Notes under the pieces: model-generated
Database searches by the model: none
What the model was told of the DNA's origin: nothing
What the model saw: only the letters and a program-made list of their open reading frames with translations
Shown here: piece after piece, positions 1,421 through 49,144 of the stretch
Layout: every line of letters begins with the position of its first letter
Numbering within the stretch: the first letter of the stretch is position 1
Made by a program: the position numbers and the translations under genes
NCBI RefSeq assembly: GCF_006345805.1
Contig: NW_021833707.1
Span: 1-56,212, forward strand
Direction of reading: 5' to 3'
Source of the DNA: Octopus sinensis
Taxonomy: Eukaryota
Length of the DNA: 56,212 bases

Positions 1421-2615
1421 CATCTACACTGAACGACAATGATAATAAACGTCAACATAAACATATCTTTGTTGACATACGAATAGAGGATGGAACCCGC
1501 CTAAGTATGTGCTACATAACCTTTATCTAGGAAAATCACGGTTATATCAACATTCCACATGCTAAAATGTTATTTTAAACTCAGACAATTACAGGAGTAC
1601 GACCCCGTACTAAAAGGGAAATACACGCAGAGGGTAGTGATACCCCAATATGAATATACATACATATGTAAAACTTTCCAGAAGTTTATCATTTAAATAT
1701 ATACGAGCATATGTAGACATGTAAGTAAATGCATGAGAATACATACATATATACATACATAGGCATGCACATGTACATACAGAAGCACACATGCACACTG
1801 ACGAACAAGCATGCGCACATACAAAAAGAACACAGCTCCAATAACGGACAAAGTCAACAGCTCTTGAGAGGGTTGCAAAATGCAACGAAAGTTTTGGAAA
1901 ATATATATCTATAAATGAGTGGAAATCGAACCAGTGAGTGTGTTAGATAATAAGGTATTAATACAATATAGCTGAATTCAACAGAATTGACTTAAAACAG
2001 TTTAACAACTAATTGTGTCTAGAGACCCAAAGAGGGATATGACACACACATAACTGCATCAGCAGACACGGCATAACAACAAAGAAAGTTTCCCCTCCAG
2101 TGCCGCAACATTGAAGCTCACGTTCCATCACTGACCTGGCACAATAGACAATGATAACCTCCTTCCACAGACAAAGAATAAAAAACATCAAAGAAACTGT
2201 CATTGGCAATAAGCTTTCTTTCAAGATACATCCGTCGGAAGAATTCTGTTGAATATCAACAGATAAAGTTTTAGAAAGTTATTATCAATCACAGAACAAG
2301 AAAGTAGAATGGCATTATTTTCATTGCCTCATATTTCGACATACAACTTACTGTTTAACAGGACTCGTAATATTCGTCATATGCATTACAAATCTTACGT
2401 CTGTCTGTTTGTGTGTGTCTGCCTGTCTGTGTGTGTTTGCCTGTCTGTCTGTCTGTCTATGTCAGTATGTGTGTGTATGTGTGTGTGGCTGTCCCTCTGT
2501 GTATATGTGAGTGTGTTGGTCTGTCTGTCTATCTATACAGAATATAAGTATTGAGGTAGGTTATTTCGACCGCATCACTGCATTATAATGACAAATAAGT
2601 AAAAGAATGTAAAGA

Positions 2616-2685
<70 letters not shown>

Positions 2686-2690
<5 letters not shown>

Positions 2691-2958
2691 GCGGACTAGG
2701 TCTAAAAGTATTGGTAACTAGGAGACTAAGTGGGCCCACCCGCAACTGCAATGCTATTATTTAGTTTTTCTTTTTCTTTTTTGTTAAAAGTATTCTGTTC
2801 AATTATCTGCAAACACAGACAGGCTGAAATAATCAATGCATTTTCCAGAAGTGAATAAAATATTCTCGATTCTAACATGGGACCCCATATATCTATTCTA
2901 ATGGCGCAGGGGCCCAATTGCCATCGGGCAAGATCGCAACCAGGTCAGTCCACCACTG
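2686..2958. mobile_element. Non-autonomous DNA transposon (hAT-like MITE) in a (TA)n tract
   Basis: Terminal inverted repeats TAGTGGCGGACT (2686-2697) and AGTCCACCACTG (2947-2958); (TA)n on both flanks; no ORF. Confidence 0.55.
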
Positions 2959-3086
2959 TATATATATAAATACATATATATATATATATAGTAAATTCAT
3001 ATAAACGGAAATGAGAAAGGGAAAATTCTAAAGAAGGAAAAGAAGTAGCCAACTGCACGTGTGTGCGTGTGAGTAAACATACGAAA

Positions 3087-3165
3087 GCGGTTGCGTGGTA
3101 AAAGCTTGCCTCCTAACCTCATGGTTCCGGGTTCAGTACCACTGCGGGGCACCTTGGGCGAAGAC
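3087..3165 (+). mobile_element. tRNA-derived SINE head fragment (family A)
   Basis: A-box-like GGTTGCGTGG and B-box-like GGTTCAGTACC; matches the head of the full copy at 21802-22209. Confidence 0.7.
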
Positions 3166-3229
3166 AAAGGCAGGTGTATAAACAACAATTAGGTGTATTA
3201 GTTTGACGCTAGGGAAGGTGAGAAAGTTG

Positions 3230-3263
3230 TTTTACGTTTCGAGCCTACGCTCTTCTACAGAAA
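3230..3263 (-). ncRNA. Ultra-minimal hammerhead-like motif (ACGT stem III variant) in a short repeat at ~3165-3310
   Basis: Minus strand TTT-CTGTAGA-A-GAGC-GTAG-GCTC-GAAAC-GTA-AAA; the same motif recurs at 37321, 39677 and 44232. Confidence 0.5.
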
Positions 3264-4293
3264 GGAACACAGATAAAATTAAAATGTGATGTTAGCGGTC
3301 AATCATGACTGAAACTAGGAAAAGAATAAAAGAGTAACTTAATATACTATATGTATATAAAATGTGTGCGCCTTCCGTACATATGTGTGCGTATATGTGT
3401 CTATAGAAATTGAATGTCATGCAGGAACTATAATTTCAAACGATTTCCTAAATATTTGCTTGTAAAATGTTTGATTTCCTAGATGTATTAGTTTTTGGAT
3501 GTTTAATGCAGTCTGGAAGAGTTTCTTTGCTAATTACATAAATATAGCAATTAATTATTCATTAATGTTATTTAACACCGCATTTAACGACCTGTTTTAC
3601 AAGAATTTCTCAATGTTTGACTCGTTAATTATATCTAAAATTCCTTGAGCTTAACGAAATCTTTCTGGATATTTTCAACGAGATACTTGGCATGTATTTC
3701 TAATCTCATAATTTCCAATCTTCGCGCATGCGCTATCAAAGTGATATTGCATATTTTATAAATAATTGATTTAAATATTCTAATATCTATAATATTGAGC
3801 TATTTATGAATAAATGTATAGGACCTATGATATATAGTCTACATTTAATTTACTTTTGTACAACAGCCAAACATATTGCTTTTTAAAAAACTGAAGCCAT
3901 CGCTTGGCAAACGGCAATCTGGTAATTAGTAAAGCGATATTATCGTTCTAAGTAATGTTCGACAATATATCTAATAATGGTTGTCATGATATATTGCTTT
4001 GCAATAATATGACAAGGAATATGTAGATGATATGGAAATAGTTTCGATGTTCAATATAATTTATGAAACAAATAAGATTTGTTTAATCTGTTATGCTTAC
4101 AAGTATACATGTGTACACATATTTCACCATGAATATCTGTATACGTGTGTGTAACGTGTGTGTGTGTGTGTGTGTGAAGATATAAGTATGTGTGTATATG
4201 TGTCTATACAAATGTATAGAGATAAATGAATAAACATATATATATAGAGAGAGGGAAAAGGAGAGAGATATTTCGCGGCGGTCAGTTTTTTTG

Positions 4294-4741
4294 TTTGCCA
4301 AATAAACACACGCATTATATATTCGTTCTTCACCCATTTCTGTTCTTATTGTAACTCATGTTCATTATCCGGAAATATTTTGTCACTCATCTGTGACTTC
4401 CTCGGCGACACTTTCTGTCTTCGTGTGTGTTCTTGCTCTGCCTATTCCATTCTGTTCTTCCATGATATATATCGTTATATGTGCATGCGTCTGTGTTTGC
4501 ATGTGTGTGCCCGCCATCGTGCTACTGATAACGATGACACACACTAATACAGACGAAGGCGCATATAAGGATGCACATCATAGAAGAACAGAATAAGCAG
4601 AGCACACACGAAGACAAAAGTATCGCTGAGGAGGTCACAGATGAGTGACGAAAGATTTCCAGATAATGGACATGAGTTAGAATAAGAACAGTGATAAACG
4701 AGTGAAGAACGAATATATAATATGTGTGTTTATTTGGCAAA
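4294..4741. repeat. ~450-bp imperfect palindrome (foldback/MITE-like)
   Basis: TTTGCCAAATAAACACACGCATTATATATTCGTTCTTCAC... is mirrored by ...GTGAAGAACGAATATATAATATGTGTGTTTATTTGGCAAA; pairing continues inward to CATCGT/ACGATG around 4516-4536. Confidence 0.85.
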
Positions 4742-12677: not shown

Positions 12678-13030
12678 CAGAATGAGATAACAAATCCGAG
12701 GCTGTGAGGAGTTTTCTGAACATTTATAATATAATTTTCTCACAGCTATTTCTGGGATATTATGGATGTCCCTTCATCAGAGACGGTGTAAGGAAATATC
12801 TGAGTTCGAATTATTGTCGAAAAGGAGGAGACAGGGAATAGAGAGGGACATAAGAGAATTAAAGTAGAAATAAGATATATTAAGATATTGTATTTGCATG
12901 CTAATACAAGAACCACATTAACCTCCTCACTCGTATCATTATCAAACCAGGAATTTAACTACGATCTATCCATAGCACTTATCATTACCTGACACTCTTT
13001 AGGTCTTCTAGATACCAATACATCTCATAC
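12673..13030 (-). mobile_element. Probable PLE terminal (pseudo-LTR) fragment between two (TA)n tracts
   Basis: Starts directly after (TA)n; contains a degenerate minimal hammerhead and a purine-rich tract, like the arms of the large element. Confidence 0.5.
12738..12783 (-). ncRNA. Degenerate minimal type I hammerhead ribozyme
   Basis: Minus strand TCT-CTGATGA-A-GGGACAT-CCATA-ATATCCC-A-GAAA-T-AGCT-G-TG-AGA: stem I TCT/AGA, stem II GGGACAT/ATATCCC, palindromic AGCT loop. The triplet is GUG, which is non-canonical. Confidence 0.6.
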
Positions 13031-13195
13031 ATATATATATATATATTATATATATATATATATATATTCAAAAAGCAATAAAGATTCAAGTTAATTTAAA
13101 TGAATTTACTTGAATATGGTACCTAACTTAGATGCACCAAAAAAAAAAAAAAAACTATACTGTTTTAACAATACAGTAATGTGGGGTGATTATAA

Positions 13196-14820
13196 GCGAG
13201 AAAGAAGCAACAAGAATGGATAGGTTTTTAGTACAATCGTTTCATACAAGGACAGGCTTTATTAAAAGTTGTAAAAATTACAGCATATAAACGTGTCCCG
13301 TACTCATCAGCTAAAATACATGTGAGTTCTCTAGACATCCTAGTGGTTGAGGCTATACTCATGAAGTAATGTAGATAATTAAGTAACATAAACAGATTTC
13401 CAAAGTTCATTAAAGTTCCTTAAAGATGATGTACAGTCTTATCACAGAATTTTAAAAAAGTTCTAATAGCATCACAGAGAAGGTGACCTAATCCATAGAG
13501 CACATATGAATTTCCAGAGATATGATGAGGGATTACATACTCACAGAAGACAAATTTATCCATTGTTAATCACAATGAGGTGGGTCTCAATTCCTGCTTA
13601 TTAGCATTACAGAGAGGGTGAATTAATCCTTTGTATAGATGCACAATTTCCAATGGTGTAGATGTAAGTTTCCAGAGAAATGAAGAGGAATTTCATATTC
13701 ACAGGCGATAAATTTATCAATGGTTGAACACAATGAGGTAGGTATCAATTCTTGTTATATGATTAGGTATTTGCCACATTAATCACATTACTGCTATTTA
13801 CAAGAGGCTGTAGCTATTAACTTTTAAATGCTGAAGGGCTTTCTAGAGAGGCCAAGAATAGAAAGGGAAGGGAATAGAAGAAAAGAGAGAAAATAAAGGA
13901 GGAGGGAGCAAAAAAGGGGGGGAGGGGACTAAAAGAGAAGAGAAAAGGAAAAAGAGAATAAGAAGAAGAAACAGAAAAAAGAGAAAAGAGAAAGAAATAG
14001 GGAAAGAAGGGAAAAAATAAAAATAAAAAGAGGGTTCTAGTTATACAGACGAATTAGTAGACGGCAAGTCTGGTTTTAATTTACAGGCATCTAGGAACTA
14101 GAGGAGAATATTATTCTTTGGCCAGTAAAACAGCTAATTATTGCTGTTGAAATCAGCTATGAATTTAAAGAGAATCTAAAGAGATAACACAGTCAGGGGT
14201 TTAGGGGTCAGATGCTAAAATCAAAAGAAAATACATTAGGAAAATCTAAGTATAATCCTATCAAAAAGTCAATAAAATTTACTTATTTAATTTATTCATT
14301 TTATTGTCTTAAGGAGTTGCCGTTATTATTCATACATTGACGGACTACAGGTCAAATCTTAGAAGGTCATTTACAAGGCGTTAGGGGATTGTCTATCATA
14401 ATGAAGATAATCATATTATCACCGAGGGGGTAGCCTTATTTATTTAATTTTGAAATAGAATTATGGGGCTATAGTATCTCATTTATTTTATTAGAGTTAT
14501 GCTACTTAAATTAGATTAAGTTAGGAATTAAAATTAAAAATTACAATTAAGATTTAAAATTAAGAATTTAAAAATTATGAGTTTGAAATTAAATAAAGCC
14601 TCAATTAAGCAGCGTATAAGTACTATTCATTTCCCTGTTCTCAAAAAACTGATGCAGATATAAGGAAAAAGATAACTGTAGTGTGAGAACTCTTAGTTAT
14701 CTACTTAAAGCAGTGCTATACTAGTAGAAATCAAGTTATATCTATCTATCTAGTTACGGCTATTCTAATCATTTAAAATATTTTAAAGTCTTCAATTTAG
14801 CGTGGACACAAACTTGACCT
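13196..14820. repeat. Left arm of the ~1.63 kb inverted repeat (PLE 3' pseudo-LTR)
   Basis: Runs GCGAGAAAGAAGC...CACAAACTTGACCT; reverse complement of 15565-17191 with only scattered substitutions and homopolymer indels; the identical 60-aa ORF appears at 13228-13410(-) and 16977-17159(+). Confidence 0.97.
13226..13316 (-). ncRNA. Minimal type I hammerhead ribozyme (left-arm copy, sense to the ORF)
   Basis: Reverse complement of 17071-17161: TTTTAG-CTGATGA-stem II-GAAAC-GATT-GTA-CTAAAA. Confidence 0.8.
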
Positions 14821-15551
14821 AGTTCGATATGATTATTCAATAAGTTTCTATGTCTTCTATGCTTTAGAATTTCATACGTCTCCATGGAGCATAGTTGGCA
14901 ACCAACCCTACTATTTTTATACGGAATTGCTCTCCTAACTATTTCCCAATTAAGGTTATAATTTTTATTATTATTTTTGAGTTCCCAGATTTTGTTTGAA
15001 AGTGTGGTGGTACCAGCTTTATGACGTAATTTAAAAGACGAGATGTGATTTCTAACTCTGGCTAGAAAATTAATTGTACATCCAACGTAAAGATATTTGT
15101 TATTCTCCGTGGATATGGTACATTTATAGATTACATTATTTTCCCCACATAGACCAGGTGCCGGGCATTTTGATTTTATTCTACACTTACACACAGGAGG
15201 AGCAACTTCAGGCTTTGGATTATTCTTGGGTAGATTTCTTAGGTTCCTATTATTTTGATTATCATTTCTATAGTTGGTGCTGATATCTAAAGTATTGCTA
15301 TTATTTATTGATCCTTCAGCTTCATCATTTAGGTTTAAAGTCCTACCATGATTTCTTATATTATTGGTAATGTTACTATTATTGTTAGTCTTTTTATCCG
15401 ACTGCATATTGCTGTTATAAATATCACTGATATTTTCATTCTCCTTATTTTCTCCATTTGCCTTATATCTATTATTTCTATTATTAACATTATTACTTCT
15501 ATTAATATCGGCATTGTTATTATTACTATTAATGTTAATGTTATTAGTCAT
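14769..15551 (-). CDS. Penelope-type GIY-YIG endonuclease domain preceded by an Asn-rich linker (RT absent)
   Basis: Uninterrupted 260-aa ORF: CKCRIKSKCP...C, NVIYKC (GIY box), YLYVGCT (YIG box), RVRNH, NWEIV, CQLCSME, LLN...CVH. The ATG is only 14 bp from the inversion junction, so this is probably the stump of a longer RT-EN ORF. Confidence 0.85.
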   Translation of the reverse strand: MTNNININSNNNNADINRSNNVNNRNNRYKANGENKENENISDIYNSNMQSDKKTNNNSNITNNIRNHGRTLNLNDEAEGSINNSNTLDISTNYRNDNQNNRNLRNLPKNNPKPEVAPPVCKCRIKSKCPAPGLCGENNVIYKCTISTENNKYLYVGCTINFLARVRNHISSFKLRHKAGTTTLSNKIWELKNNNKNYNLNWEIVRRAIPYKNSRVGCQLCSMETYEILKHRRHRNLLNNHIELGQVCVHAKLKTLKYFK

Positions 15552-15564
15552 TCTGTGGTTACTA

Positions 15565-17191
15565 AGGTCAAGTTTGTGTCCACGCTAAATTGAAGACTTT
15601 AAAATATTTTAAATGATTAGAATAGCCGTAACTAGATAGATAGATATAACTTGATTTCTACTAGTATAGCACTGCTTTAAGTAGATAACTAAGAGTTCTC
15701 ACACTACAGTTATCTTTCTCCTTATATCTGCATCAGTTTTTTGAGAACAGGGAAATGAATAGTACTTATACGCTGCTTAATTGAGGCTTATTTAATTTCA
15801 AACTCATAATTTTTAAATTCTTAATTTTAAATCTTAATTGTAATTTTTAATTTTAATTCCTAACTTAATCTAATTTAAGTAGCATAACTCTAATAAAATA
15901 AATGAGATACTATAGCCCCATAATTCTATTTCAAAATTAAATAAATAAGGCTACCCCCTCGGTGATAATATGATTATCTTCATTATGATAGACAATCCCC
16001 TAACACCTTGTAAATGACCTTCTAAGATTTGACCTGTAGTCCGTCAATGTATGAATAATAACGGCAACTCCTTAAGACAATAAAATGAATAAATTAAATA
16101 AGTAAATTTTATTGACTTTTTGATAAGATTATACTTAGATTTTCCTAATGTATTTTCTTTTGATTTTAGCATCTGACCCCTAAACCCCTGACTGTGTTAT
16201 CTCTTTAGATTCTCTTTAAATTCATAGCTGATTTCAACAGCAATAAATTAGCTGTTTTACTGGCCAAAGAATAATATTCTCCTCTAGTTCCTAGATGCCT
16301 GTAAATTAAAACCAGACTTGCCGTCTACTAATTCGTCTGTATAACTAGAACCCTCTTTTTTATTTTTATTTTTTCCCTTCTTTCCCTATTTCTTTCTCTT
16401 TTCTCTTTTTTCTGTTTCTTCTTCTTATTCTCTTTTTCCTTTTCTCTTCTCTTTTAGTCCCCTCCCCCCCTTTTTTGCTCCCTCCTCCTTTATTTTCTCT
16501 CTTTTCTTCTATTCCCTTCCCTTTCTATTCTTGGCCTCTCTAGAAAGCCCTTCAGCATTTAAAAGTTAAATAGCTACAGCCTCTTGTAAATAGCAGTAAT
16601 GTGATTAATGTGGCAAATACCTAATCATATAACAAGAATTGATACCTACCTCATTGTGTTCAACCATTGATAAATTTATCGCCTGTGAATATGAAATTCC
16701 TCTTCATTTCTCTGGAAACTTACATCTACACCATTGGAAATTGTGCATCTATACAAAGGATTAATTCACCCTCTCTGTAATGCTAATAAGCAGGAATTGA
16801 GACCCACCTCGTTGTGATTAACAATGGATAAATTTGTCTTCTGTGAGTATGTAATCCCTCATCATATCTCTGGAAATTCATATGTGCTCTATGGATTAGA
16901 TCACCTTCTCTGTGATGCTATTAGAACTTTTTTAAAATTCTGTGATAAGACTGTACATCATCTTTAAGGAACTTTAATGAACTTTGGAAATCTGTTTATG
17001 TTACTTAATTATCTACATTACTTCATGAGTATAGCCTCAACCACTAGGATGTCTAGAGAACTCACATGTATTTTAGCTGATGAGTACGGGACACGTTTAT
17101 ATGCTGTAATTTTTACAACTTTTAATAAAGCCTGTCCTTGTATGAAACGATTGTACTAAAAACCTATCCATTCTTGTTGCTTCTTTCTCGC
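15565..17191. repeat. Right arm of the ~1.63 kb inverted repeat (inverted pseudo-LTR copy)
   Basis: Begins AGGTCAAGTTTGTGTCCACGC, which duplicates the last ~17 codons of the ORF; ends TTCTTTCTCGC followed by (TA)n. Confidence 0.97.
17071..17161 (+). ncRNA. Minimal type I hammerhead ribozyme (right-arm copy)
   Basis: Stem I TTTTAG (17071-76)/CTAAAA (17156-61); CTGATGA 17077-83; stem II GTACGGGAC...GTCCTTGTAT; GAAA 17144-47; C-GATT-G mini stem III; GUA triplet 17153-55. Confidence 0.8.
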
Positions 17192-18676
17192 GTATATATA
17201 TATATATATATGTGTGTATGTGTGTGTGTCTATGCGTATATGTATGTATATATATTTTCGTGTGCGTGTGTTCCCCAGTATATGAGACTCTTAAAATGTT
17301 GAAAATATAATTATTAATCTCAGATGCGTGTCAAAGATAATTATAAATTTCGCATCAATCGTGAGGTAATGAACTGTGTGAAAGGTAAAAAAAAATAAAA
17401 CCAAAAAACAGAACATCTTTAATGCATTATGTGATTATACATTCCTGTGTTCAACATTTTAGGAAAATGGTCATATTTATTATTTTAGTACGTGAAATTA
17501 TAAAGTGAAGAGCGGACATTGAAGCGAACATCTCTGATACTCATTTATAAAGAAATAAATGAACCATCAACAATTCCAAACAGATTTGACAGAGAATACA
17601 AAAGGATTATTTTATATTAATTGTTTGTTAATGATTATATTTTTCGACAGAAAATATTCTGGGTCTCTAAGAATACGTGAATAAAATGACAATGCCAGCA
17701 TTGATTATTGCCATCATTACTTTATCATAAAGACAGTTTACTATTTTAAAGGTTTAATATACGACTTCATTAAATTATTAGATATATTCTTTATGAAAGA
17801 TGTCCCTAAGAAACAATGTAGATCTTAGATATCTTAGTTCTCTAATGAATATGTAATATTTTATAGAAAATAATGCTGCAAAATTTAAACACCATTTTTC
17901 AAATCTTTTAGACATATTCTGTCAGTTAAGTAATATTATAGTCTGCAATAGAGCGACAAATGGTTATGTTTATAATTGACATAACCGTACACTAAATGTG
18001 CTGAGAGTTGTGATCCTAAAGACATTAAATCTATGAGACTATTCACTGCCACCAAAATGAAGACAGAAAGAAAGCTTAATTTTTCTGAAAATATTGTTAC
18101 AAACGATAGTCACGGGAGCACATTTTCCCTTCAGGATATATTTTCATCCAAGCCAAAAGTTAAAGGGAAAGGTGAGATTGCACAGGCAATAAAAAGATTA
18201 TCAGTGAGATGAAAATAAGATAAAGACGCATCAGAATAACCCCATGAATAAAGAAAACAAACTGGGAATAAACGAGGTAATTATGAATGACAGGATTCTG
18301 ATGCAGTGAATGTCGTTGGAAAAGGTATGTTTAGGGCATGCGGTGCCAAGTGGAAATGAAATGAAATTGCGAATTAGAGGATTTCCTACAAGATTTGTTG
18401 CGTAGAAATACCCGTCACTTGAAACAGCGTATGACACTTTATTGTAAACAGATCTGATAAACTAGATGTAATTTGGGAGGCAAATCAGCTTGTACTCTGT
18501 GCTATGCACGAACTTAATCTATTGTTTTATGTATAGACCGATAAAAATTGTCATTTGTTTTGCAGTGAGTGACATTTTCTATGTAATGTATACATACGCT
18601 CATGGGCATATGGCGTAGTGGTTAAGAGCGCGGGCTACTAATCCCAAGATTCCGAGTTCGATTCCAGGCATTGACC

Positions 18677-47980: not shown

Positions 47981-48050
<70 letters not shown>

Positions 48051-49144
48051 CTATACATATATATATATATATGTTACGGATCTAACCACCCGTAACATAT
48101 ACTGCAAAGAATCCCGAGAACCGTGTATAACAGAGAATCTAGACAATACGTGGATGAACAGATATTGAATATGCACGCCGAATATTACAACTCAGCACTA
48201 GCTAGGGCAGTGTATAAGGACAGAGTAGTGTATGTACAGATTAAGACAGAGAGGGCTCAATACCCGGAGAGCGTTATTAATATTAGAGTTAATCCTCTAA
48301 GTAACCACCAAAAAAAAGTAAATATAATAGCGACCAAAATGGAAAGAAGGGGCCACAGCACTAAAAAGTATAGATGTAAAAGAGAACCTACGAAGCAGAA
48401 TGAAAGGGTAGAAAGAAAGGGCCGATAAACGTAGATAGAAATAGTAAAATGATGAAACTTAATACAGTAACAAACCAAATAAATCCATTTGAAATTGGAA
48501 AAATAAGTGAGTAAATTATTTGGTTTAGCCCAATTTTCCATTCACAAATGAAATCCAAAATAGATCATGAATTCTTGAGAGTTAGACAGGCAATTACCCA
48601 AATCTTCCAAAATCACAAAATCAACAGGCTAATGTAAAATAAGCATATGTGACCTCTGAAAATCTGAAATACTACATACACAAACTAAGCAACATAAAAC
48701 ACAAGAGGATAAAACTGGGGGGGAGGGGCTTACGGATAAACCCCAAACTTATAACCCAATAAACAACGATGGAATGTTGCAACTAGGAATAATAATATAT
48801 CACCAATAACAAAAATGGGCCCAAGCAGATTCATGCTATTGGCAGTCCAATCCATACCTAAGGAAAATGAAAACGCGGTTACAGGAAGAAAAACAAATAG
48901 ACCCCACCTTCAGTAATAACTCCGCTTAAAGAACCGCAAAATATGATATAAAATGTAACTGCAGACGTAAAACAGAATGCCAGATTCAAAGCAACTGTAT
49001 GATAACGAATGTTGTTTGCAAATGTTAGGTGAAGACTGGTAACCAGAAATACCTGTACAATGGTGATATCGGAGACATGAAAAATCGTGAGCGCAATCAT
49101 ATTACCTCATATTCAAATGTAAACAAAAGGCACTTGACATTATT

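Follow-up and report, generated by a model that had tools for sequence, protein, structure and literature searches.

A head-to-head Penelope-like insertion in Octopus sinensis and the single-tail pattern of its family

The window analyzed here is a stretch of 56,212 nt of the Octopus sinensis genome (contig NW_021833707.1 of assembly GCF_006345805.1), and it contains, between two (TA)n tracts, a long inverted structure that is very probably a single insertion of a young family of Penelope-like elements (PLEs) from the Hydra clade, with two 5'-truncated copies standing head to head. The window copy is likely dead because it lacks the reverse transcriptase (RT) of its family, and the locus is an ordinary insertion.

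Structure of the insertion and of its parent family

One indication comes from the junction between the two copies. In the searched genome of 2.72 Gb (2,719 Mb), a 37-mer spanning the junction has one exact match, which is the window locus itself, and among the best 40 of 626 candidates the 71-nt junction sequence is fully covered by the window alone. When the stretch 14780-15620 was used as the query, all 39 other loci among the best 40 of 842 candidates matched only up to position 15565, and beyond this point all 29 sister loci examined share one family sequence, not the inverted arm. In the 10-kb stretches of the sisters this sequence reads as an RT frame with the motifs RWK, DKT, FDINS and YRDD. 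The RT-bearing relatives that the first-pass annotation of the window, made from its letters, had proposed to look for were found in this way, and its view that the locus arose lately by truncation and inversion within a young PLE family is supported.

The two arms (Table 1) are reverse complements of each other and differ, in an arm-against-arm alignment, by five substitutions, all of them transitions (13487, 13576, 14258, 14379 and 14667), and by four one-base indels; their edges are given by a mismatch at 13195 and a gap at 14820, and a spacer of 744 bp (14821-15564) separates them. Mapped on the family unit, the locus consists of unit positions 2218-4593 plus a tail, joined to an inverted segment of unit positions 2962-4593, and both outer ends adjoin (TA)n. 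The tail stretch occurs at the left end only, and it also precedes the ATG in the full-length copies L031 and L032. The arms, their scattered differences and the 744-bp spacer had been described correctly in the first-pass annotation, which overlooked the tail, the hammerhead cores in the arms and the (TA)n at both ends.

Table 1. Features of the two-armed insertion, in positions of the window
Feature	Position	Strand	Remark
(TA)n target, left	13027..13067		sister ends also abut (TA)n
Tail, equal to unit 1-126, with which the next tandem unit begins (5' leader ahead of the family ATG)	13068..13195	-	
Left arm, comprising the main copy's 3' region and the final 52 nt of the open reading frame (unit ~2962-4593)	13196..14820	-	
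Type-I hammerhead-like motif, left arm	13226..13316	-	pattern search; no Rfam match
Open remnant of 260 amino acids, C-terminal part of the ~946-codon family frame	14769..15551	-	
Hydra-type CxCX5C linker and GIY-YIG endonuclease with R, H, E, N and CxxC / CxH	14772..15191	-	
Asn-rich insert between the RT thumb region and the endonuclease	15192..15551	-	alignment with relatives
Head-to-head junction of two 5'-truncated copies (unit 2218 / 2962)	15565..15565		1-nt overlap
Right arm, second, inverted 5'-truncated copy (unit 2962-4593), without tail	15565..17191	+	
Type-I hammerhead-like motif, right arm (CUGAUGA / GAA core, stems I-III)	17071..17161	+	
One G foreign to the tandem join of the family, then (TA)n target, right	17192..17211		G shared by most tail-less ends

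The parent family is represented by a natural full-length copy with a unit of 4,593 nt, in which the ATG lies at position 174, the stop codon ends at 3013 and a 3' region of 1.58 kb follows. The open reading frame (ORF) of about 946 codons encodes an RT followed by an endonuclease (EN) and holds two Asn-rich inserts. The 30-mer at the 3' end of the family has 1,827 exact matches in the genome, a 22-mer running from the 3' end into the tail has 1,038, and two subfamilies about 5% apart can be distinguished. A model of the RT region of L032 (predicted local distance difference test, pLDDT, 80.7) has a telomerase RT as its top Foldseek match (E 1.3e-8), which is the fold expected for a PLE RT. 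Pfam gave no RT match on three family frames or on the alignment with relatives, and a sequence search of the PDB with the RT region of the family gave no match.

The motifs point to the Hydra clade, as the first-pass annotation had suggested. According to the clade description of Craig et al. (2021, PMC8557442), its members, Hydra-1_Obim included, have a single ORF with an RT and then a C-terminal GIY-YIG EN, and are defined by RWK and DKT motifs, a CxCX5C linker, CxxC and CxH around the E and N residues, the lack of a CCHH motif, hammerheads near the 3' end and (TA)n targets; Penelope-13_HM of this clade is listed there with an inverted 5'-truncated copy. The family is alike in all of these respects. 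RWK and DKT stand at residues 37 and 124 of the L032 frame; the linker, the CxxC and CxH beside E and N, and the lack of CCHH hold in the window frame and in the alignment of relatives; the EN follows by eye the Hydra alignment of Fig. S7 in PMC8557442, as does the RT, and the outer ends examined abut (TA)n. The traits of EN-containing PLEs, namely a partial tandem pseudo-long terminal repeat (pLTR), an inverted 5'-truncated copy and a tail, are found in the family, and the telomerase-related RT is present in the family ORF (YRDD and the L032 model), the window copy itself being without RT. On these motifs and the by-eye alignment, the family is taken to be a Hydra-clade PLE, apparently an uncatalogued one, set apart by eye from Hydra-1_Obim, whose N-terminus differs.

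Its size departs from that of the clade, since the unit of 4.59 kb exceeds the length given as "generally <3 kb" in PMC8557442. The excess stems from the Asn-rich inserts and the long 3' region, and size is a descriptive trait; relatives of about 700-730 amino acids (aa), 36-40% identical to the family protein, lack both inserts. The tail of 126 nt is also longer than the 30-40 nt described for PLEs.

A hammerhead core with stems I-III was located in each arm by pattern search. The constrained fold reaches -10.5 kcal/mol, compared with -12.5 kcal/mol for the free fold (z -0.35), and one stem III pair is G-U or G-C according to the subfamily, with 93 and 37 occurrences. A search of Rfam over 12900-17400 returned no hammerhead family, only noise in the form of microsatellite-driven microRNA and 6A hits. 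A canonical hammerhead near the 3' end is a Hydra trait, and the family has it as a candidate motif.

Several other observations concern the family. The first ~150 aa of an adhesion G-protein-coupled receptor G6-like protein (isoform X2) of Octopus vulgaris are 99% identical to its Asn-rich insert, which reflects either exonization or an annotation artefact. Words of the family are present in sequencing runs under four organism codes from 10 studies, none of the listed ones being recorded as RNA, and four runs of two codes cover the stretch with variants. Beside some copies lie frames that we take, from their motifs, to be a second PLE type with a DKSG motif and a CxxC linker (L043, 20-703 and 1505-2731, minus strand; L040, 6674-7273) and a LINE-like RT (L050, 7714-8550).

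Tail pairing in two-armed insertions and its possible origin

Head-to-head arms are the norm in the family, and their breakpoints differ from one insertion to the next. The first 100 3' ends in the list include 28 pairs within 10 kb that face outward and none that faces inward. The set scored for tails comprises 47 two-armed insertions, that is, these 28 pairs, four further loci down the list on contig C1, 14 loci chosen because they hold the EN or ORF, and the window. It excludes four insertions in which an arm is partial or very short (L031, L050, L080 and L087), one with an open end (L037) and those with a single arm. Outer ends are of two kinds: some coincide with the end of the unit, others reach 126 nt beyond it into the next unit's leader. 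Of the two outer ends of an insertion, one and only one has the 126-nt tail in 47/47 insertions (42/42 simple and 5/5 containing a tandem), where independent choice of ends would give this outcome in about half. The four insertions with partial arms that lie outside the 47 also show one tail each. The rule is independent of arm length, as the tail sits on the longer arm in 16 of the 31 unequal insertions and on the shorter arm only in the other 15.

The two arms of an insertion also appear to be related in their letters. Both arms belong to the same subfamily in all 47 cases (27 and 20), and letters found in exactly two arms fall within the same insertion 59 times and in different insertions 4 times, where about 3 same-insertion cases would be expected; the two arms of the window share three letters seen in no other arm. 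At the junctions of the 42 simple insertions there is an overlap of 1-15 nt in 26, an insert in 14 and a blunt join in two. The shorter arm ranges from 70 to 3,455 nt in these 42, and that of the window, with 1,627 nt, is the fourth longest. The first-pass annotation had called the pLTR unusually long; it is long, mainly because the 3' region of the family measures 1.58 kb, and in three of the 42 the shorter arm is longer still.

The insertions at L066, L074, L077, L079, L081, L090 and L065 are near-perfect palindromes whose two arms end at an equal unit position, and their cuts often fall at short self-complementary stretches. At 17192 and at most tail-less ends (L032-L091) a G precedes (TA)n in place of the T of the tandem join, and tail ends often run into (TA)n a few bases early; mis-priming or slippage may account for both.

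These patterns may be explained by target-primed reverse transcription in paired form, with two start sites for the RT. In vitro, a PLE protein was shown to nick AT-rich DNA on both strands, to extend both, and to begin RT on the RNA at two positions that delimit the tail; the anole protein is predicted to dimerize (Frangieh et al. 2024, PMC11167929). Together with the in vitro result on two start sites, the 47 single tails and the shared arm variants suggest paired priming. The RT-EN protein of a full-length copy would nick both strands of a (TA)n target, and each 3'-OH would prime cDNA synthesis on element RNA, the first from the start site of the tail end and the second from that of the tail-less end, 126 nt off. 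The two cDNAs would stop early, and their 3' ends would be joined through short complementarity (1 nt at the window locus) and filled in, so that the EN-only frame in the window would result by chance from the stopping point of the longer cDNA. RNA transcribed across the insertion is predicted to form a hairpin of 1.6 kb and not to act as an mRNA. The strict form of this explanation, in which one RT-EN complex nicks both (TA)n strands, always uses one strand per start site, copies RNA of one source and joins the cDNAs head to head, is put forward tentatively, at slightly under even chances.

Somewhat less probable, and competing only with the mechanistic part of the explanation above, is that the same dead copy acquired its inverted arm by fold-back (self-priming) of one strand, and that the tail asymmetry came later from a staggered endonuclease cut at both tail ends in a hairpin DNA intermediate. 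Such a course would account for the identical templates and the one-tail rule, and the equal breakpoints of six of the near-perfect palindromes (all those named above except L065) agree with it; moreover, self-priming has been proposed for PLE inversions (PMC3846280), and the Penelope EN recognizes the tail, as cited in PMC11167929. However, plain fold-back from a target-primed cDNA cannot place the tail on the shorter arm only, as seen in 15/31 unequal insertions, and an extra step of free-DNA integration is needed, for which biochemical support was not found, whereas RT starts at both tail ends are what was observed in vitro.

Paired priming, in turn, has several points against it, as does the reading of the locus as a whole. 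The in vitro study saw no strand difference in the start site used, and it did not pair the two strands of single molecules (PMC11167929). The variants shared between arms could be due to gene conversion, or to two RNAs transcribed from a single source locus, and we infer the paired-priming step from genomic patterns. An unbroken ORF was found in 0/23 full-length copies checked, and therefore no source copy was seen, although the broken ORFs may partly reflect one-base assembly errors; the "active family" of the first-pass annotation finds no support in this count. Finally, none of the contigs listed from four sequencing runs bridges the junction, which therefore rests on one assembly.

As regards other elements, L1 twin priming offers a parallel, in that a second nick in the target primes a second cDNA and the inversion is joined by microhomology, as is proposed here. 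L1 inversions are not known to duplicate the 3' end, whereas both arms of the window insertion carry it.

A close counterpart in structure is Penelope of the rotifer Adineta vaga, described with inverted pLTRs, a tail on one of them, palindromic junctions and long Asn-rich in-frame inserts between RT and EN; it is unlike the octopus family in its very low copy number and its pLTRs of about 200 bp, and the available part of the description names no Hydra-type motifs (Arkhipova et al. 2013, PMC3846280). The authors prefer to explain its inversions by self-priming, in which an antisense template is used. Poseidon PAc of Anolis has a tail bounded by two fixed ends, an AT-rich target and a hammerhead beside the pLTR-ORF junction, as in the present family, and differs in that its start sites lie 111-118 nt inside the ORF, whereas both tail ends of the octopus family lie upstream of the ATG at unit 174 (PMC11167929). 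A tail on one inverted pLTR has been described in PLEs as optional or frequent (PMC3846280 among other sources). No paper stating strict tail pairing in PLEs was found, and none, judged by title, on twin priming or dimer models of PLE inversion, though the older PLE literature may hold such statements.

Integrity of the palindrome and the endonuclease frame

That the palindrome is an assembly or chimeric-read artefact is very unlikely. The contig is an unplaced one of 56 kb, the indels between the arms lie in homopolymers, and an independent bridging contig is missing from those listed; against this, each of the five arm substitutions is private to one arm among the arms sampled, the flanks differ, the right flank is single-copy, and only one arm has a tail, as in 46 other insertions. 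Two candidate signals from the sequencing runs were discarded: a listed joint 14833-15565 is the normal colinear sequence of the family running off the query stretch, and the loose ends at 15565 in runs X17 and X9 are the upstream, RT-side sequence of the family. With a distance of 0.09 taken as 25 million years (PMC13282606), the five substitutions in 1,620 positions correspond to roughly 0.4 million years, a figure calculated by hand that ignores gene conversion.

The minus-strand ORF at 15551-14769 encodes 260 aa from its ATG, 52 nt of it inside the left arm, and consists of an Asn-rich part (42 N among the first 120 aa), the CxCX5C linker and a GIY-YIG-like domain, with a CxLCxxE motif also present. 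No RT occurs in the stretch in six-frame translation or by tblastn, where a 753-aa family frame matches over its residues 522-753 only. On these points (the Asn-rich ORF with an ATG, both cysteine motifs and the missing RT) the first-pass annotation was accurate. Its GIY-YIG call stands on the conserved residues Y, YxG, R, H, E and N in the alignment and on Foldseek ranks: for a model of the last 140 aa (pLDDT 75.7), T4 EndoII and I-TevI come first among PDB structures and UvrC ranks high. The scores are weak, with the Pfam match to PF01541 below the cut-off (E=0.0024) and no Foldseek match at E<=0.001. The Asn-rich insert is absent in the seven relatives aligned. The window frame differs by 0.4-1.7% from 29 sister frames. 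Private changes in the sister EN frames number 44 nonsynonymous and 17 synonymous (ratio 0.61), a mixture of source and post-insertion changes that was not used.

The first-pass annotation also considered that a recurring junction would mark a non-autonomous element that moves as a unit, supplies EN and borrows RT in trans. The open frame, which has an ATG at a distance of 14 nt from the junction and keeps every conserved EN residue, would suit such an element, as would the retained 3' region, hammerhead and tail, through which its RNA could in principle be copied in trans, and non-autonomous Chlamys PLEs exist (PMC8557442). The idea was nevertheless rejected and is the least probable of all: the 2218/2962 junction was seen once in the genome, contrary to the multiple loci expected of an EN-only element, 29/29 sisters continue into the RT frame, no sense-oriented pLTR lies upstream of the frame, and the ATG, taken earlier as the frame start, is an internal Met at unit position 2232 of the longer ORF. 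A first downstream ATG in frame arises for 550 of the 1,347 cut points between YRDD and the CxC linker (41%). A breakpoint within the EN C-terminus, noted earlier as frequent in 5'-truncated PLEs, is no rule in this family but one among many scattered ones; in 12 of the 29 sisters the cut also lies downstream of YRDD, with 11 distinct positions among them, and five of these RT-less copies keep the same 260-aa frame. Two letters of the window frame, and no more, are missing in all 29 sisters; judged from the codons by eye, one is silent and the other replaces an amino acid, and this gives no signal of selection. A literature search for EN-only PLE families found none, although older PLE literature may hold such a statement.

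Flanking repeats and significance of the family

A search for the empty site gave no empty allele, the left flank being a different repeat, and therefore no target-site duplication could be read. This left-hand repeat (12680-13020) lies between two (TA)n tracts and is of high copy number (2,603 candidates, 83-89% identity); its relatives hold parts 1-219 and ~200-340 on opposite strands, a CTGATGA hammerhead-like core occurs on its minus strand near 12764-12770, and it is possibly an older inverted insertion of PLE type. Elsewhere in the window, 35192-36041 and 47994-49139 (plus strand) are old, decayed fragments of Hydra-like PLEs, 28-42% identical to the family protein. Within the 3' region of the family there is a direct repeat of 82% identity (13511-13601 and 13669-13758), adjoined by a long purine/pyrimidine tract (13860-14040).

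The locus itself is of little import, as one of hundreds of truncated copies of a family that is unusually long for a Hydra-clade PLE. How PLEs form tandem and inverted structures, and why the tail is one-sided, is named as an open question by Craig et al. (2021, PMC8557442), and the many young insertions of this family, with a long and easily scored tail, make a good data set for the origin of these structures. Strict pairing yields a prediction that could be tested in the in vitro system already available for PLEs. If it is true, the one-tail rule would be the mark of paired priming on the scale of the genome, connecting the in vitro result on two start sites with inverted structures so far unexplained, and the family would record how Penelope-like elements make inverted repeats.

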